Shown: positions 10,848 through 27,187 of the stretch, one piece after another | Position numbering within the stretch: position 1 is the first letter of the stretch | Layout: every line of letters starts with the position of its first letter | Source of the DNA: an uncultured Eubacteriales bacterium | GTDB lineage: Bacteria > Bacillota > JAAYKD01 | DNA length: 29,305 bases | Direction of reading: 5' to 3' | Assembly (NCBI GenBank): GCA_964484445.1 | Contig: CAZAFY010000001.1 | Coordinates: 1-29,305 of the forward strand | Program-made: the position numbers and the translations under genes | Notes under the pieces: generated by a model | The model's input: only the letters and a program-made list of their open reading frames with translations | Told to the model about the DNA's origin: nothing | Databases searched by the model: none

Positions 10848-11594
10848 TTATCCACGTATTGCTAAAAACAAAGTTGAGGGGGAATCCTCTTGCCACGTCG
10901 TCCCTTCTACACTACCATAGAAATCTACTACCACAAATCCAGCGTCTTGCAACATTTTCTGAATTTGCAGTCGTCGTATTGGATAAACCACGATTTCTTG
11001 CTTGGTCAACTCCTTTGCATCAATGCGCAATAAGGATAATTCAGTCTGCATGCTGAGATACCCATCATTACGTAAGCGGAGTTTGCGTTGCACTCGAATA
11101 CCGGTATCTTCATTGACCAAATCCGGTAACTCACGAACTTTATAATCTAAGAGCATATCATAGTTGAACAGTTGCATAACCAACCGCCCGCCTTTATTCA
11201 GCAAGGTAGCAGCCTGCTTGAAAAAAGCTTGATATTCACTTTCGTCTTTTAAAACGGAGGATGCGTTGTTTAGACAAAGGATCACATGATAACTACTGGG
11301 CTTACCGGGCAACTCCAATAACGGTGCCGACTCAAATTGTAAGGCTCTTGGTACTTTATCTTTCATGGAATACGCTTTCGCGTTCCTGAGTAAAGCTTGC
11401 TCGCTTTCAACTGCGGTTACGACCGAGCCCGATACTGCTAAAGCATGCGCTAACTCTCCCCCACCGCATGCGGCATCCAAAACATGGGCAGATGAAAGAT
11501 TGCCTATTTCATTGGTCAGAAAACTAACCATTCCCAAGGAAGGTTGCACCAAAGTAGCATAATAATCGATGAATCCATACATAATATCGGACAT
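10848..11594 (-). CDS. Class I SAM-dependent methyltransferase
   Basis: Motif I VLDAACGGGELA, acidic end of beta2 (AVES), YHVILCL, LNKGGRLVMQ; GGAGG RBS; 18 nt after the LysR stop. Confidence 0.85.
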   Translation of the reverse strand: MSDIMYGFIDYYATLVQPSLGMVSFLTNEIGNLSSAHVLDAACGGGELAHALAVSGSVVTAVESEQALLRNAKAYSMKDKVPRALQFESAPLLELPGKPSSYHVILCLNNASSVLKDESEYQAFFKQAATLLNKGGRLVMQLFNYDMLLDYKVRELPDLVNEDTGIRVQRKLRLRNDGYLSMQTELSLLRIDAKELTKQEIVVYPIRRLQIQKMLQDAGFVVVDFYGSVEGTTWQEDSPSTLFLAIRG

Positions 11595-11612
11595 CTGTAT
11601 CCCTCCAATGGT

Positions 11613-12488
11613 TTACTGATTCTTTAGAATCTTCCTTGCCAAGGATAAGAATTCCTCCTTCAAGTAGAAAGAATTCTCTTTTCGGTAGATCAGTGAATTG
11701 CAACGGGCGGAGGGTAAGAATTTTTCTTGCTGAATGATGCGCAATCTCCCTCGCTCAATCGCTTGGCTGACAGCCCGTACCGGCAGTAGTGTATATCCTA
11801 ATCCGGCTGCTGCCATTTCACGAAGCGCTTCTATACTATCCATTTCCATAACGTTTTCCGGAACAAAACCGTGCTGAGCAAAAAATTGATCAATATAGGT
11901 GCGAAAGCCTGTTCCTCTGGCAAAGATCAACCAAGGGCCTAAGGCTAATTCCGCTAAACTGTGAGGATGCAGTTCCGGCGAAGCCACAATCGCCATGGTA
12001 TCATAAAAAAGCGGTTCTACCGTGAGTCGTGCGTGGATCACTTCTGAACTGACCAGACCAACATGAGCGGTTCCGTCTTCGACCATGCGCACTGTTTCTG
12101 TTGTTTTTCCGGAGTAAACCGTCAATTGTGCCTTTGGAAATTGTTTGCGATACATTGCCAAGACTCGTGGCAACAAATAGGTCATGGTCACGCTCCCGGC
12201 TACCACGACCAAGCGTCCTTGATAAGGGTCAATCGCCTGTGCAGCTTCCGCTTTCAATTCTTGAACTTGACTGACGATTCTTTGAGCACGTGGTAAGATC
12301 ATCTCTCCAAAGGGTGTAAGCTGAAGTTGCCTACCTTTTCTCACAAAAAGCTGCCCGCCCAGTTCTCCCTCTAATTGCTGGATTTGCTTACTGACAGCGG
12401 GTTGGCTGAAACCAAGTAAATCTCCGGTTCGTGTCATATTCAACGTTTCAGCAGTTCTGCAAAAAACCAAGAGTTGCTGTACTTCCAT
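11613..12488 (-). CDS. LysR-family transcriptional regulator
   Basis: HTH (SQPAVSKQIQQLEGELGGQLFVR..R...LTPFG) plus substrate-binding domain. Start ATG 12488 preferred. Confidence 0.93.
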   Translation of the reverse strand: MEVQQLLVFCRTAETLNMTRTGDLLGFSQPAVSKQIQQLEGELGGQLFVRKGRQLQLTPFGEMILPRAQRIVSQVQELKAEAAQAIDPYQGRLVVVAGSVTMTYLLPRVLAMYRKQFPKAQLTVYSGKTTETVRMVEDGTAHVGLVSSEVIHARLTVEPLFYDTMAIVASPELHPHSLAELALGPWLIFARGTGFRTYIDQFFAQHGFVPENVMEMDSIEALREMAAAGLGYTLLPVRAVSQAIERGRLRIIQQEKFLPSARCNSLIYRKENSFYLKEEFLSLARKILKNQ

Positions 12489-12619
12489 TACCACCACCCC
12501 TTTCAAGTATTCCTTATGGTTATGATTCAATAGAAGATTATCATTTCCCTGCTATGGCTTGGTTATTGTATAATCTTTTTGTTGGATATTTATCCCAAAG
12601 ATGGAAAGGCGTGATTTTT

Positions 12620-13891
12620 ATGTCAGTCAGAGCAATCGTTGGAGCACAATGGGGAGACGAGGGCAAGGGTAAAATTGTCGATCTTTTGGCACAAGAGGCC
12701 GATATCGTAGTTCGATTTCAGGGAGGGGCGAATGCGGGACACACCGTAGTCAATTCGTATGGCAAGTTTGCTTTACATCTGATTCCCTGTGGAATCTTTA
12801 ATCCCAAAGTCACCAACATTATTGGTACCGGTACCGTCGTAGACCCGGCTGGCTTAGTAACCGAAATTTCACAATTACATCAAGCCGGTATTTCTACAAA
12901 GCAGTTGAAGATATCAAATCGTGCTCATTTATCGATTCCTCTTTACGGTTATTTAGACCGTTTGTTGGAATTGGCCCGTGGTAACTCTGCTCAAGGATCC
13001 ACCCTAAGAGGGATCGCACCGGCATATGCTGCAAAAAGTTTACGGGTTGGCTTGCAAATGGGCAGCATGCTCAACCGAGAACGTTTTATGCAATCTCTGC
13101 GTGACATTTTGGTCAGTGGCAATCAACTGATTGAAGCGGTCTTCAAAGAGAAAGCAATCGACATTGATGCAACTTTAATTGAATTTGAAGAATACCTACG
13201 AGTCTTATCGCCGTATATCTGTGATACGCTTCCAATTTTACACCAAGCTGCCAAAGAAGATAAAAATATACTCTTGGAAGGTCAATTAGGGGTGATGCGC
13301 GATCTCGATTGGGGAATTTATCCTTATAGCACCTCTTCCAACCCCACTTCCGGTGGAGCTGCTTCCGGCAGCGGTTTACCTCCGCATCTAATCAGTAGAG
13401 TAACCGGTATAGTAAAGGCTTTCTCAACAGCCGTAGGCGCCGGCCCTTTCCCTACTGAACTCAAAGATGAAGTAGGTTCGTACTTACGCGACTTTGGCGA
13501 AGAATTTGGTGCCACAACCGGTAGACCACGGCGTTGCGGTTGGCTTGACTTAAATGCTCTCCGTTATGCTGCCCAACTCAATGGGTTCACCGATGTCGCT
13601 ATTACAAAATTAGATACTTTGGATCAATTAGAGCATCTCAAAGTTTGTACGCATTATCGACTCGATGGTCAAATCGTGGAAGGAATGCCCTTAGCAGAAG
13701 ACTTAGAACGTGTGGAACCGGTCTACGTTGAAATGCCCGGCTGGAACTGTTCTACCCAGCAAGTGAGAAGTTGGCAAGATCTACCCAAAGAAACCAAAGC
13801 CTATGTAGAATTGATCGAAGAAGCCTGTGGGGTCAAAGCCTCTTGGCTTTCGGTTGGTCCCTCGCGAGAAGCCACCTTCCGTCGTAGTTAA
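12620..13891 (+). CDS. purA: Adenylosuccinate synthetase family protein, divergent paralog
   Basis: GAQWGDEGKGK, GGANAGHT, EFGATTGRPRRCGWLD, TKLD, SVGP; but EGQLG replaces EGAQG and STAVG replaces STRVG. Start ATG 12620 (the ORF-track extension covers the promoter region). Family is certain, function is not. Confidence 0.85.
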   Translation: MSVRAIVGAQWGDEGKGKIVDLLAQEADIVVRFQGGANAGHTVVNSYGKFALHLIPCGIFNPKVTNIIGTGTVVDPAGLVTEISQLHQAGISTKQLKISNRAHLSIPLYGYLDRLLELARGNSAQGSTLRGIAPAYAAKSLRVGLQMGSMLNRERFMQSLRDILVSGNQLIEAVFKEKAIDIDATLIEFEEYLRVLSPYICDTLPILHQAAKEDKNILLEGQLGVMRDLDWGIYPYSTSSNPTSGGAASGSGLPPHLISRVTGIVKAFSTAVGAGPFPTELKDEVGSYLRDFGEEFGATTGRPRRCGWLDLNALRYAAQLNGFTDVAITKLDTLDQLEHLKVCTHYRLDGQIVEGMPLAEDLERVEPVYVEMPGWNCSTQQVRSWQDLPKETKAYVELIEEACGVKASWLSVGPSREATFRRS

Positions 13892-13958: not shown

Positions 13959-14330
13959 ATGGCCTACATGTCTTTTTCTCTCACGCCACAAGGCACCTTG
14001 ATTCAAATGGAAGGCAAAGCCGACCAACTCGTCAACAAAGAAAACTTTGGCCCAACCGATCACTTCTTTGCCGGGATCGGCGCCTGAATGTATGCTGGAA
14101 TTGCGTCTTACGGACGTAAATTCGAGCTTCCGGTGGAAGCTATTACCATGACCCTAGATACTACAAAAAACGAAACCACTCGTTTGATCAACAAGATGGA
14201 TTTCCAAGTCAAATTCCCCGAAGGGTTCCCTCCTCAACATCTGCAATCGATCTTGAAAAACATGAACGCTTGTTATGTTAAAAAACATTTGTATGATCCT
14301 CCTGAAGTCACAGTGACGGTCATAGAATAA
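13959..14330 (+). CDS. OsmC/Ohr-family protein, probable selenoprotein (TGA 14085-14087 = Sec43; 123 aa)
   Basis: AAGGAGG RBS before ATG 13959; MAYMSF...FGPTDHFFAGIGA-[TGA]-MYAGI... continues in frame into ORF 14088-14330. The TGA occupies the first conserved OsmC Cys; the second Cys is in NACYVKKHL. Confidence 0.8.
14094..14141 (+). promoter_or_regulatory. Candidate SECIS hairpin(s) of the OsmC-like gene
   Basis: Hairpin GCT-G-GAATTGCGTC-TTACG-GACGTAAATTC-G-AGC (loop at +21 from UGA) and overlapping AGCTTCC-GGT-GGAAGCT (loop at +45). Folded by eye. Confidence 0.5.
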
Positions 14331-14401: not shown

Positions 14402-14815
14402 TTATTTAAACAACCGGATGATCAAGAAACTAATGGTTGCGGTTGCCCCGCTCAAAAAAGTTCCCCAGATCAAATCGATGATTGTGATCATAATCGGCCA
14501 ATCGCGTATCGTAGCCAAATTGGTCAGATCATAGGTAGCATAAGTGACAAAGCCAAAGAACATACCGGTAAACAAAGCAACCTGCCAACTCTGCTTTGCT
14601 AAAGCCGGATTGATTACAAAAAACAACATACCCACAATAAAAATGGCGTAGAAGATGAAGGCAGCTGCAAAATTGGTTTTCGGCGCCATGAGGTAGCCTA
14701 ATTTTTCAGTATACAAGTTTTTAGCTACAAACCCCAACCAAATCAGATCGATGACTAAAAAAACGCCAAAGGAAATGAAGAAATTGCGGAAATCCGCACC
14801 ACTGATCGAACTCAT
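14402..14815 (-). CDS. DUF2177-like membrane protein
   Basis: IDLIWLG, FY..FIVG, FG..TYATYDLTN.AT...W......IDLIWGT motifs. Start ATG 14815 (AAGGTG RBS). Confidence 0.8.
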   Translation of the reverse strand: MSSISGADFRNFFISFGVFLVIDLIWLGFVAKNLYTEKLGYLMAPKTNFAAAFIFYAIFIVGMLFFVINPALAKQSWQVALFTGMFFGFVTYATYDLTNLATIRDWPIMITIIDLIWGTFLSGATATISFLIIRLFK

Positions 14816-14834
14816 GGTCACACCTTCTCTTTGC

Positions 14835-15590
14835 TTACTTTTTGGGGAACCAGGGGATGAAGACAGGGGTTTTCTCGGCATATTCTTTGAATCCGGGGCG
14901 TTTCATCATAGAACGTTCTAACATTGGCACTCCGGAAACAAAGACCAATAAATACGTGATCACTGCAGGACTGATAATCACCCAAAACGGAGCTCCGGAA
15001 GCGCGAGATAGTACATAAATCCCCCACCACATCACGGACTCCCCAAAATAGTTGGGATGACGTGTATATTTCCATAGACCTTCGGTCATGATTTTACCCT
15101 TATTTTCAGGATTTTCCTTAAAGGCTTCCAACTGCCAATCACCTACTGCTTCAAAATAGAAGCCGATCACCCAAATAAGACCTCCCAGCCCGGTCAAAGA
15201 TGGATTCCATAGATTCGCGTCTGTTCCGGCAAATATGATGCCGAGAGCGACGACTAACATAAAGAAAGCTTGAGTCATGTAAACTTGCAGAAAAGCTCGA
15301 GGAACAACCATACTTCCCCATTCTTTACGCCATTGCGCATAGCGGAAATCTTCGGGCTTCCCCCAGTTGCGACGAATGATATGATAAAACAAACGCAATC
15401 CCCAAATGGATACCATGAGGGTCATCACCGTTACCGGAATCGGCACCGGCCTGCGGGTCAACCAAGCATACCAAGAAATAATCACAAAACCGATCCCCCA
15501 ACCGATATCAACAATGGAATTATTCTTGATCACGGTACCTACGATAAAGAAGAGGATAAAGTATATAAAAATCAGTGCAACAACATCCAT
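14835..15590 (-). CDS. DUF1295 / steroid 5-alpha-reductase-like membrane protein
   Basis: NNSIVDIGWG, WGLRL, EDFRYAQWR, EAVGDWQL..FK, GLWKYTRHPNYFGE..WWG, SGVPMLE. Confidence 0.85.
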   Translation of the reverse strand: MDVVALIFIYFILFFIVGTVIKNNSIVDIGWGIGFVIISWYAWLTRRPVPIPVTVMTLMVSIWGLRLFYHIIRRNWGKPEDFRYAQWRKEWGSMVVPRAFLQVYMTQAFFMLVVALGIIFAGTDANLWNPSLTGLGGLIWVIGFYFEAVGDWQLEAFKENPENKGKIMTEGLWKYTRHPNYFGESVMWWGIYVLSRASGAPFWVIISPAVITYLLVFVSGVPMLERSMMKRPGFKEYAEKTPVFIPWFPKK

Positions 15591-15602: not shown

Positions 15603-17399
15603 TTAAACTTTTATAAAACAAACCGCAACACTGCCCGGACCGGAATGAATAGCAACCACCGAGGAGATTTCTGTGATAAATGCCGGTTCTTTCCCGATCT
15701 TGCTGCGTAAAAGATCTTTATATTCCAATGCCAATGCCAGATTATCCGCATGAACAATACAGTAATCTTCGATACCACCGCTTTGAAGTGCTTCATCCAC
15801 CAGTTTCATGATTCGAGAGGTGATCCCCTTTTGACTGAATGCAGCACCAAAGGCGATTCCTTTGCCGGCTTCATCAATCGACATGATCGGACGAACTCCT
15901 AACATATTCCCGATTTTGCCAACCGTATTGGGAACCCTTCCCCCCTTCGCTGCAAATTCCAGCGTATTCAAACAGACGTATATTTTGCTTTTGGCAATGC
16001 GTTCTTGAACAAGAGTTGCGATTTGATCATGGTCCAACCCCTGACTTCGCGCTTCCACAGCAGCTTTAACAATCAATCCTTGCGCACCGCTGTTGAGCAG
16101 ACTGTCAATGACTGTAATCCTCTTCCCCATTGCCTGTAACTGGTTCGCTTCTTTCTCCAAAGCTGCATGCGTACCGCTCATCTTGGAAGAAACCGTGATC
16201 ACAATCAGGCTCTCGAATTGATCTGCAGCCCATTGCAGATATTGGCTGATTCTTCCCGGTTCGGGTTGTGAACTGGTAGGGTGATGTGCGGTAGTTTTCA
16301 TGCGCTGGAAAAGCTGTTGTAAGCGAATGGTGGTTTTATCTAGATAAATCAGGTCGTCCAGCAACAACCCCAAAGGCAAAACCGGAATTTGTTGTGCCAA
16401 AACTAATTCACCGGAAAGATCAGCTATGGAATCCGTTAAAATCCCGATCGGTGATATTCTCTGATTGATGATTCGATTTTGCAGTTCCATATCATCAACA
16501 ATCTGATCAATGATCCTTCCCCATTTGCGCAATCTTTCCACAACCAATTCCGGTGTATTGGTATGGATATGAATTTTTAGTTTTCGTTCCATGGTTGTAA
16601 CAAGTAGGGAATCGCCAAATTCACGCAAATCAGCTTTGACCCGATCTACAAAGCCGGAGTCCGACATTCCTGTTTCAATCTCCACTGTTATGGTCGTGCA
16701 GTAACGAAACAAGATCTTTTCGACCTGATGATGATCAACATTTTCAACCACCAATTCGTCCTCTACCGGTTGGCTCACATGCAACGATTCACTGGCAAGA
16801 AAGCGATTGATCCCTTGAACGAAGAACAAGAAGCCTGCCGCACCAGAATCGACAACATTGTTCTTCCGTAATAATTCCAATTGCTCCTTGGTGTGCTCCA
16901 ACGACTGGGCTACGATTTGCTGGGAGTCCCGTAAAAATTCCAGGAACCCCTGATAATGCTGATGATTCTGAACCAGGAAAGTAGCCCAATCTTTGATGAC
17001 ACTGATGATCGTTCCCTCTACCGGTTGATCAATAGCTTGGTACATCCCTTTTACAGCTCGATTCGCAATTAAGGCAAAATCAGATAACCCTATTTTCTCA
17101 AAAGGTCCGGCTTCAACCGCCATGGCATTGACATAGGCAGCAAAAATGATCCCTGAATTTCCCCTAGCATTGGCCAAGCCGGTTTGCGAAATTTCATGCA
17201 GCATGCTATTAAAAGCCGTCTTGCGACTGGTTTTATCGACCATGGCCCGTAAAGTAACCACTAAATTGCTACCGGTATCGCCGTCGGCAACCGGAAAAAC
17301 ATTGATTGAATTCAAGTATTTACGATGCTCATGAATTTCTTCGGCCCCATATTTAAACCAACCGTATAAATCGGTTCTGGTAATAAATTGTCTGTTCAT
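15603..17399 (-). CDS. DAK2 (FakA-like) - DegV (FakB-like) fusion, putative fatty acid kinase
   Basis: NVFPVADGDTGSNL and ARGNSG (DAK2); YCT...HIHT middle domain; SSQP, SSKMSGT, GGR, HSGPG (DegV). Start ATG 17399 preferred. Confidence 0.88.
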   Translation of the reverse strand: MNRQFITRTDLYGWFKYGAEEIHEHRKYLNSINVFPVADGDTGSNLVVTLRAMVDKTSRKTAFNSMLHEISQTGLANARGNSGIIFAAYVNAMAVEAGPFEKIGLSDFALIANRAVKGMYQAIDQPVEGTIISVIKDWATFLVQNHQHYQGFLEFLRDSQQIVAQSLEHTKEQLELLRKNNVVDSGAAGFLFFVQGINRFLASESLHVSQPVEDELVVENVDHHQVEKILFRYCTTITVEIETGMSDSGFVDRVKADLREFGDSLLVTTMERKLKIHIHTNTPELVVERLRKWGRIIDQIVDDMELQNRIINQRISPIGILTDSIADLSGELVLAQQIPVLPLGLLLDDLIYLDKTTIRLQQLFQRMKTTAHHPTSSQPEPGRISQYLQWAADQFESLIVITVSSKMSGTHAALEKEANQLQAMGKRITVIDSLLNSGAQGLIVKAAVEARSQGLDHDQIATLVQERIAKSKIYVCLNTLEFAAKGGRVPNTVGKIGNMLGVRPIMSIDEAGKGIAFGAAFSQKGITSRIMKLVDEALQSGGIEDYCIVHADNLALALEYKDLLRSKIGKEPAFITEISSVVAIHSGPGSVAVCFIKV

Positions 17400-17576
17400 T
17401 TTACACCCCACAATGAAAATTTGTAACGATTTCTTAGTAGGAATAGTTCTCCATAGCAATTAAAATTCCTTTACCAAGGGAGAAACTTTAGAAAAAAACA
17501 ACTTGAAAAAATTGTTATTTTCTGGTATTCTCTATTTGTTCATTTTTTCGTTAACTTTGTACGAAAGGGGTACTGT

Positions 17577-26686: not shown

Positions 26687-26705
26687 GGGTTCTCACTCCT
26701 TCTAG

Positions 26706-27176
26706 TTATAGAGTTTGAAGTTGGTCCAAAATCTCAAAGATCTCTTCACTCTCGGGAATATCTTGCATCGAATTACCGTAGTGAGCAAAGCGAAGGACCC
26801 CTTGCTTATCGATCAACATTTGAGCAGGCATCCGACCTAATTTTAGCAATTTGACTTCTTGACCATAAAGATTCAGAACCTGTTTTTGCTCGTCGGGTAA
26901 GCCGATGAAGGGGAGTTGGTTCTTCTCCCAGTAGTTTTTAAAAGCGGAGGCATTTTCGGGGCCAAGCACAACAATGACGGTATCTCTTTTAGTAAATTGC
27001 TCGAATTCTTGACGCAACTGCGCCATATGCTTTTGGCAAAAGGGTCAGATAAATCCCCGGTTAAACACCACTAAGATATGGGACTTCCCTTGGTACTTTG
27101 AGAGTTCAAATAATTCTCCGTTGAAATCGGGTAAAGAAAAGTTTGGGGCCTGCATGTTTACGTCTAATCTTGCCAT
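26706..27176 (-). CDS. Peroxiredoxin-like (AhpC/TSA, PRX_like2) protein, probable selenoprotein with UxxC (TGA 27047-27045 = Sec44; 156 aa)
   Basis: AGGAG RBS before ATG 27176; MARLDVNMQAPNFSLPDFNG..FELSKYQGK.HILVVFNRGFI-[TGA]-PFCQKHMAQ... is in frame with ORF 26706-27026. The TGA is the first position of the CxxC motif. Confidence 0.88.
27010..27025 (-). promoter_or_regulatory. Candidate bacterial SECIS
   Basis: Minus strand UGGCGC-AGUU-GCGUCA; the apical loop starts 26 nt after UGA and has G as its second base followed by U. Confidence 0.65.
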
Positions 27177-27187
27177 ACCATTCACTC

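Follow-up and report, generated by a model that had tools for sequence, protein, structure and literature searches.

The purA-like gene and its surroundings

The window, by which we mean the whole stretch of DNA that was analysed (29,305 nt, from an uncultured Eubacteriales bacterium), carries a purA-like gene that is divergent to a gene for a LysR-family regulator. The features of the locus are listed below by position and strand, with the evidence for each in brackets.

10848..11594, minus strand: class I SAM-dependent methyltransferase gene, downstream of the LysR gene (Pfam; a neighbour in relatives)
11613..12488, minus strand: gene for a LysR-family regulator, 291 aa from the ATG at 12488, divergent to purA (PF00126 and PF03466)
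12489..12619, no strand: spacer between the LysR and purA genes, 131 bp (six-locus alignment and sequence)
12606-12612, plus strand: ribosome binding site GGAAAGG (sequence)
12620..13891, plus strand: purA-like gene, coding for an adenylosuccinate synthetase (AdSS) of the 'type II' lineage described below, 423 aa (translation, PF00709, NF002223, AlphaFold model)
12995..13036, plus strand: GSTLRGIAPAYAAK loop, E. coli residues 127-140 (carries the own-clade changes T128S, G134A/S and D139A)
13277..13303, plus strand: EGQLGVMRD, the type II signature, in which Q222 aligns with E. coli A223, L223 with Q224 and R227 with L228 (columns of 271 PurA proteins)
13430..13432, plus strand: Ala271 within STAVG, aligned with E. 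coli Arg272 (column analysis)

The ATG at 12620 is the likely start codon, since GGAAAGG lies 7 nt upstream, homologues are 421–427 aa in length, and the ORF beginning at a GTG (12431) overlaps the LysR gene. The 423 aa product scores 552.8 bits against PF00709 (Pfam; cut-off 27) and exceeds the cut-offs of two NCBIfam equivalogs, NF002223 (520.7; cut-off 402) and TIGR00184 (476.7; cut-off 395.55), so that by profile scores the match to the PurA family is strong and chance is excluded. Its closest solved relatives are the AdSS of B. anthracis (E 4e-122) and that of E. coli. The exact protein was recovered elsewhere only on one 1.8-kb Logan contig.

Active site, base pocket and structure model

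E. coli PurA (L012), aligned with 269 homologues, was used as the numbering reference. The catalytic residues D13, K16, N38 and H41 and the P-loop are invariant in the window protein, in its own clade and in type II; the IMP phosphate and ribose ligands (T129, R143, T239 and V273) and the aspartate site (R131, T300, T301, R303 and R305) are complete, and the guanine-specificity elements TKLD (K331, D333) and SVGP (S414-x-G-P) were both found in the 423 aa translation, as was the motif TTGRPRR. Within the GSTLRGIAPAYAAK loop, T129, R131 and K140 are unchanged. A sequence-only reading of this DNA had described the catalytic, GTP and aspartate-loop elements as intact, and the alignment to E. coli PurA bears this out for every residue that it listed. 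Among 32 diverse homologues, 77 columns are invariant and include all of the catalytic residues.

The base-pocket substitutions relative to E. coli PurA are A223Q, Q224L, L228R, H232W and R272A, and further substitutions are T128S, G130L, G134A, D139A and R147Q. The first three fall within EGQLGVMRD, which stands where canonical PurA has EGAQGTLLD and is followed immediately 3' by DWGIYPYST; DWG and STAVG likewise replace DHG and STRVG. The altered base-pocket motifs had also been pointed out in the sequence-only reading, and each of the substitutions it listed is real and correctly placed. From the Honzatko/Fromm literature we take Gln224 and Leu228 to be base contacts in E. coli AdSS, and Val273 to be a ribose contact; Gln224 is also reported to be important for catalysis in that enzyme. 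The two base contacts are a hallmark of the characterised enzymes, which are type I. The window protein has Leu and Arg in place of the two base contacts, as do 143/143 type II sequences, while in the alignment the remaining functional residues are retained in the window protein, in its clade and in all type II proteins. The absence of Gln224 from the window protein counts against reading it as a working IMP enzyme.

The AlphaFold model of the product has a pLDDT of 89.7 and superposes on the ligated AdSS structures of B. anthracis and E. coli (4M9D, 1CG3) with a TM score of 0.95 and an rmsd of 2.1–2.2 Å. The pocket loop (residues ~221–240) is modelled less confidently (pLDDT 56–68), and a search of the PDB with the pocket segment gave best matches that are all type I (EGAQG/STRVG), with no solved type II pocket.

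Judged on alignment, profiles and model, the product of 12620-13891 is a real member of the adenylosuccinate synthetase family by all criteria tested except the Gln224/Leu228 contacts. That the gene is instead a decayed or non-catalytic relic is hardly credible: the missing Gln224, and nothing else, speaks for decay, against which stand the intact reading frame, the invariant columns with their catalytic residues, the confident structure model, and homologues of 60–94% identity that are conserved in many assemblies.

Two PurA types

An alignment of 271 PurA proteins was built from the best 120 database homologues and 150 representatives of an exhaustive HMMER search. The motifs EGQLGx[M/L][R/K]D and DWG occur in 120/120 of the best database homologues, and ST[A/C/S]VG in every one of these with a readable ST.VG motif. 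Most of the 120 are ~55% identical to the window protein and bear labels such as Anaerolineae, Caldilineae, WOR-3 and Firmicutes. Over the whole alignment, positions 223/224/228/272 (E. coli numbering) exist in only two states, which we designate type I (A-Q-L-R, n = 128) and type II (Q-L-R/K-[A/C/S], n = 143). Mixed states are absent apart from rare variation at 272, where type I has R in 99% of sequences, type II has A, C or S, and one protein (P0166) carries Lys together with R228. The columns that discriminate the two types at ≥85% conservation are 18, 223, 224, 228 and 272. Public annotation already names type II proteins adenylosuccinate synthase.

In a neighbour-joining tree calculated without the diagnostic columns, type II is near-monophyletic, a single clade into which one other sequence intrudes, and the window protein (QLRA) lies inside a monophyletic type II sub-clade (n = 35, 60–94% identity). 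The changes specific to this sub-clade (H110Y, D114E, T128S, G134S/A, Y269F, D139A and R147Q) are all mild. The mean corrected distance to type I is 0.97 in the window's clade and 0.985 in the rest of type II, compared with 0.91 within type I, values that give no sign of a burst of divergence. Judging from the alignment and tree, type II is a distinct, ancient PurA lineage, and because the pocket signature is common to a large, near-monophyletic clade it is better regarded as a mark of lineage than as the product of one neofunctionalised paralogue. The striking pocket is a clade trait and most likely functionally silent.

The proposal, made from the sequence alone, that the altered pocket reveals a repurposed paralogue thus loses its footing, as EGQLG..R, DWG and ST[A/C/S]VG are shared across the clade and no rate acceleration is seen. 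GSTLRGIA, offered as a further sign of repurposing, is clade-specific but conservative. The phylogeny of EGQLG homologues, one of the checks suggested in that reading, reveals a clade that tracks taxonomy across phyla and not an isolated paralogue. A literature search found no description of two PurA pocket types or of a type II lineage. Gln224 has so far been regarded as invariable in the AdSS IMP site, and here is a whole clade without it; the four-residue swap gives enzymologists a directly testable case of natural active-site rewiring, and a caution that single pocket substitutions are poor evidence of neofunctionalisation.

Distribution of type II

A degenerate DNA pattern for EGQLGxMRDxDWG was searched for in GTDB genomes, one per species, and gave at least 120 matches. 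Among the matches listed, most belong to Chloroflexota (Anaerolineae, Caldilineae, Chloroflexia, Limnocylindria and Thermoflexus) and Spirochaetota (Sphaerochaetaceae, Treponematales and others), and further ones to Alicyclobacillus isolates, Armatimonadota, Dormibacterota and some Myxococcota MAGs. A tree of the scan sequences groups them by taxon (the Chloroflexota classes, Spirochaetota, Alicyclobacillus). From the phylum-wide, taxonomy-tracking pattern, Chloroflexota and Sphaerochaetaceae would have type II as their sole PurA, and type II is probably the standard enzyme in many spirochaetes as well as in Chloroflexota. The deep type II representatives all come from uncultured organisms and include no model organism.

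Within Bacillales, the distribution of type II is patchy. A protein search from A. mengziensis retrieved it from at least 15 named species of Alicyclobacillus, as well as from Pullulanibacillus sp. KACC 23026, whose type II protein has close relatives only in Alicyclobacillus (52–56%). No type II gene was found among PLSDB plasmid records, where no match reaches 60% identity and the ones that were checked proved to be type I.

The LysR partner and the spacer

The window LysR is not assigned to any NCBIfam subfamily at cut-off, its best scores being to the selenium-associated LysR (144.9; cut-off 250) and GltC (133.8; cut-off 350) models. Its orthologues adjoin purA-II in five relatives (L002, L003, L004, L011 and L013; 47–72% identity), and a LysR gene adjoins purA-II in 5/7 lineages of the window's clade. 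The arrangements in this clade are as follows.

P0003, P0004 and P0121 (PurA identity 74–75%): methyltransferase and LysR genes, divergent to purA
P0008 (PurA identity 64%): methyltransferase and LysR genes, divergent to purA
P0012 (PurA identity 64%): LysR gene, divergent to purA
P0024 and P0015: purA-II without LysR

The methyltransferase is a neighbour in the window, L002, L003 and L013, and in L011 (30% identity), and its link to purA is uncertain.

The pairing extends beyond this clade. Among the matches listed from the motif scan, counting loci with enough upstream sequence (L087 being included after correction of its ORF call), a divergent LysR gene abuts purA-II in 7/7 evaluable Bacillota loci, six from Alicyclobacillaceae and one from a Bacillota MAG, and LysR is adjacent in 1/82 loci of other phyla, that one being an Armatimonadetes MAG. 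One Treponematales locus has a LysR gene 1 kb from purA-II. In Pullulanibacillus the LysR–purA-II pair is likewise adjacent. The partner LysRs match the window LysR over their full length with 107–165 bits (27–40% identity), compared with 36–58 bits for an unrelated LysR encoded at a type I locus, and for this reason are probably orthologous. For Bacillota, the partnership between type II purA and its divergent LysR is real and conserved.

The spacer contains a conserved block at ~12511-12552, TCC.T..GTTAT...TTC.AT...ATTTCCCTGC, that was seen across six loci, two of which have PurA proteins only 64% identical. ATTTCCCTGC occupies 12542-12552, and the block ends at the would-be -35, 17 nt before a TATAAT at 12569-12574. 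The spacers of Alicyclobacillus share a different block, CAATTTTACACATA. These blocks are putative LysR operators, which from their conservation and position would overlap activator-dependent promoters. A search of the whole window with Rfam returned no riboswitch or other RNA element at gathering score, and a consensus scan for promoters and terminators gave sites that are no more frequent than in shuffled sequences.

It had been argued from the sequence alone that the gene is inducible through the divergent LysR and is not the housekeeping purA. The first part gains from the conserved partnership and the spacer block; the second does not follow, since a divergent LysR is no argument against a housekeeping role (lysA, ilvC and metE). 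The unusual feature of 12620-13891 is its conserved pairing with a LysR regulator. We know of no LysR described for purA, and a literature search found no description of such a pair; to our knowledge, dedicated control of the AMP branch point by a LysR-type regulator would be seen here for the first time.

Genomic neighbourhood and copy number

The canonical Bacillota locus, rplI-dnaB-purA with a type I gene, is seen in Paenibacillus cellulosilyticus and Acetoanaerobium noterae. In a Peptococcaceae MAG the order is rplI-dnaB-FAD-depend_C-purA, and another lineage has FAD-depend_C-purA, both with type I. An orthologue of FAD-depend_C is kept near purA-II in three sister lineages of the window's clade, at a distance of 1.7–5 kb and with a class I (Glu/Gln) tRNA synthetase gene between them; these FAD-depend_C proteins share 73–76% identity with each other and 47% with their type I-linked counterpart. 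No type I purA follows FAD-depend_C at that site in the three lineages, and the presence of purA-II there is a hint that type I has been replaced. In the window's own sub-lineage the FAD-depend_C/GlnRS context is lost, and purA-II lies beside a HydABC hydrogenase operon.

The same neighbourhoods can be read differently, with the window gene as an IMP-dependent second copy that is induced by LysR while a housekeeping type I purA occupies another site in the genome, such as the one after dnaB. Such an isozyme might be used in particular conditions or might differ in its sensitivity to feedback or inhibitors, for instance if the pocket Arg discriminated against AMP. The window gene is indeed outside the dnaB context, the position after dnaB is the standard Bacillota arrangement for type I, and LysR and purA-II act as a two-gene module across Bacillota. 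Two purA genes are present in some Paenibacillus genomes (PMC4186907). The Pullulanibacillus pair lies in mid-chromosome, at 1.875 of 4.80 Mb, amid accessory-looking genes (acetyltransferase, NUDIX and nucleoside deoxyribosyltransferase-like), and together with relatives found only in Alicyclobacillus and the patchy occurrence in Bacillales this makes an added copy the better fit in that genome. For the window's clade a second copy is possible and has an appreciable, if minor, share of the probability, as it has to contend with the sister lineages, which carry type II and not type I near FAD-depend_C, with the vertical distribution of type II across the genus Alicyclobacillus, and with an evolutionary rate equal to that of housekeeping PurA.

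Our preferred reading, to which we assign a probability of about 0.58, is that 12620-13891 codes for a type II AdSS, IMP-dependent and controlled by LysR, which has probably supplanted type I. In the wider clade of the window, purA-II would then have taken the place of the canonical type I purA rather than joining it.

Substrate and proposed mechanism

On this preferred reading, the ORF product would convert IMP, L-aspartate and GTP to adenylosuccinate, GDP and Pi. In type II the substitutions A223Q, Q224L, L228R and R272A/C/S occur as one block around the hypoxanthine/ribose site, and the catalytic base and acid, P-loop, guanine motif, aspartate loop and IMP-phosphate ligands are the same as in type I. 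We envisage a compensated rewiring, in which the hydrogen-bond donor to the O6/N7 edge of IMP shifts from Gln224 to Arg228, and loss of Arg272, the neighbour of the ribose-contacting Val273, may free the space for Arg228. As the changes are on the N7/O6 side of the base, and the chemistry of D13 and H41 needs an N1-H and a 6-oxo group, IMP is the most likely substrate. Since Arg only donates hydrogen bonds, it may, speculatively, disfavour the 6-amino group of AMP and so weaken product or feedback inhibition. Expression of purA-II would be governed from an activator-type promoter by the divergent LysR, bound at the conserved block over the -35, a layout that would resemble those of LysR-lysA, IlvY-ilvC and MetR-metE.

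The sequence-only reading had instead proposed an aspartate ligase, GTP-dependent and induced by LysR, whose substrate is a non-IMP purine nucleotide; candidates would be deoxy forms and 7-deaza-, 8-oxo- or 2-substituted 6-oxopurine nucleotides. The ligase itself and its altered base contacts stand; the new substrate probably does not, the pocket being lineage-wide. Both E. coli residues that touch the base (Q224 and L228) are altered, no type II enzyme has been characterised, and LysR regulation is unusual for purA. ToyG of toyocamycin synthesis is a PurA homologue with another substrate. PurZ is a second homologue of this kind (PMC12884076). Even so, a new substrate is unlikely: among the matches listed, the same pocket is found throughout Chloroflexota and in many Spirochaetota and groups like a core gene, rate acceleration is absent, the required N1-H and 6-oxo group limit the choice of base, and the 2'-OH ligands V273 and R303 are retained. 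The product also scores 93.2 against the PurZ model NF038379 (cut-off 300), and no partner lyase, reductase or deazapurine gene was found in the window or in the 10-kb flanks of its relatives.

A broader departure from classical AdSS, by type II as a whole or by the LysR-linked Bacillota enzymes, is rather doubtful. It could take the form of activity on another 6-oxopurine nucleotide, or of an IMP enzyme that the Arg-for-Gln pocket renders insensitive to feedback by AMP and adenylosuccinate or to natural AdSS inhibitors, in which case the dedicated LysR might switch on type II so that the housekeeping enzyme is bypassed under certain conditions. Should type II respond differently to feedback or inhibitors, this would be relevant to the engineering of purine flux and to AdSS-targeted inhibitors; if it is an ordinary AdSS, the result amounts to nothing beyond a useful note for annotation.

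Comparison with known systems

The phage 2-aminoadenylosuccinate synthetases PurZ and PurZ0 (6FM1, 7ODX, 7VF6) belong, like the window protein, to superfamily PF00709. The window protein aligns to PurZ structures over its N-terminal ~140 residues only (E about 1e-11), and unlike PurZ it keeps the guanine-specific TKLD and the full-length PurA architecture. Identity with PurZ was rejected on the NF038379 score and on TM scores of 0.58–0.65 between the model and PurZ structures. Homologues from deazapurine pathways (ToyG-like) cluster with PurB-like lyase, GMP-reductase-like and preQ0 genes; a role of this kind was rejected, as no such Pfam families occur in the window or the flanks of its relatives.

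A divergent LysR gene is a classical layout for biosynthetic genes, among them lysA, ilvC, metE and gltAB. The window pair is like LysR-lysA, IlvY-ilvC, MetR-metE and GltC-gltAB in its head-to-head genes and ~130-bp spacer, and like LysR-lysA-type pairs in having a conserved block over the presumed -35 of the target, with a weak -35 and a good -10. It differs from these named pairs in that its regulator falls below all NCBIfam subfamily cut-offs.

The nearest known system is canonical PurA (EC 6.3.4.4; E. coli 1ADE/1CG0, B. anthracis 4M0G/4M9D), with which the window protein shares 43–46% identity, length and fold, together with the P-loop GDEGKGK and the catalytic, IMP-phosphate, aspartate and guanine residues detailed above. 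Unlike canonical PurA, it lies outside the rplI-dnaB-purA context and has a divergent LysR as partner, and it carries the block swap A223Q, Q224L, L228R and R272A, with H232W, that marks it as type II.

Candidate selenoprotein genes in the window

Two genes with an in-frame TGA were found in the window, one of them immediately downstream of purA:

13959-14330, + strand, OsmC-like candidate selenoprotein gene, beginning 67 nt downstream of purA
26703-27185, - strand, AhpC/TSA-like (peroxiredoxin-fold) gene, in-frame TGA at 27047-27045

The first forms a single frame, MAYMSF...GIGA-TGA-MYAGIASY...TVIE, interrupted by the TGA at 14085-14087, and when this codon is read through as Cys or Sec the product is an OsmC-like protein of 123 aa. 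It matches PF02566 with 31.3 bits (cut-off 27.5), and the TGA lies inside the matched span, at what we take to be the position of the first catalytic Cys of OsmC/Ohr proteins. The TGA is also present in the corresponding gene (11391-11759) of L013, a relative's locus with LysR beside type II purA, and a hairpin is found 11-40 nt 3' of the window's TGA (MFE -19.8, z -3.3). The product is a candidate selenoprotein. For the AhpC/TSA-like gene, reading the TGA as Sec gives ...GFI-U-PFC..., a UxxC motif, and the annotated 106-aa ORF matches its Pfam model from position 45 onward only. No significant hairpin was detected downstream of this TGA (z -0.1), and the gene is either a second selenoprotein gene or a pseudogene.

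The LysR gene of the window (11613-12488, - strand) has as its top NCBIfam match NF040786, 'selenium metabolism-associated LysR', but its membership was rejected, the score of 144.9 bits being below the cut-off of 250. This sub-threshold match is curious, as a candidate selenoprotein gene lies two genes from LysR.

Other genes of the window

14402-15590, - strand, DUF2177 (159 aa) and DUF1295 (251 aa) genes
15603-17459, - strand, 618-aa fusion protein gene (PF02734 and PF21645 N-terminal, PF02645)

The fusion protein joins a DAK2/FakA-like N-terminal part (PF02734 and PF21645) to a full DegV/FakB-like domain (PF02645); both fatty-acid-kinase subunits appear to reside in a single polypeptide. 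The DUF1295 product is a steroid-reductase/ICMT-like membrane protein, and the 47 nt overlap of its gene with that for DUF2177 suggests that the two are translationally coupled.

Unusual carriers of type II purA

Two near-identical copies of type II purA lie on separate contigs of the Limnocylindria MAG SMAG_U1271; the pair may reflect either duplication or redundancy in the assembly:

L057, contig DASSPF010000099.1, type II purA copy
L117, contig DASSPF010000059.1, type II purA copy

The near-identical type II purA genes at loci L030 and L049, from bins labelled Ruminococcus intestinalis and Eggerthellaceae, are nested within the Spirochaetales group, and their presence in these bins is probably due to contamination during binning. 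The representative protein P0166 has the type II EGQLGVMRD motif yet retains a basic residue at 272 (TTKVG), and may represent an intermediate stage in the evolution of the joint change at E. coli PurA positions 223/224/228/272.

LysR-purA spacers in other lineages

Six Alicyclobacillus LysR-purA spacers (L022, L054, L072, L080, L087 and L126) share a common block, (ATGCA)-N7-8-CAATTTTACACATA, which differs from the spacer block of the window's clade; the Armatimonadetes locus L037 has ATCAATTT...ACCACATAG, similar to the Alicyclobacillus block.
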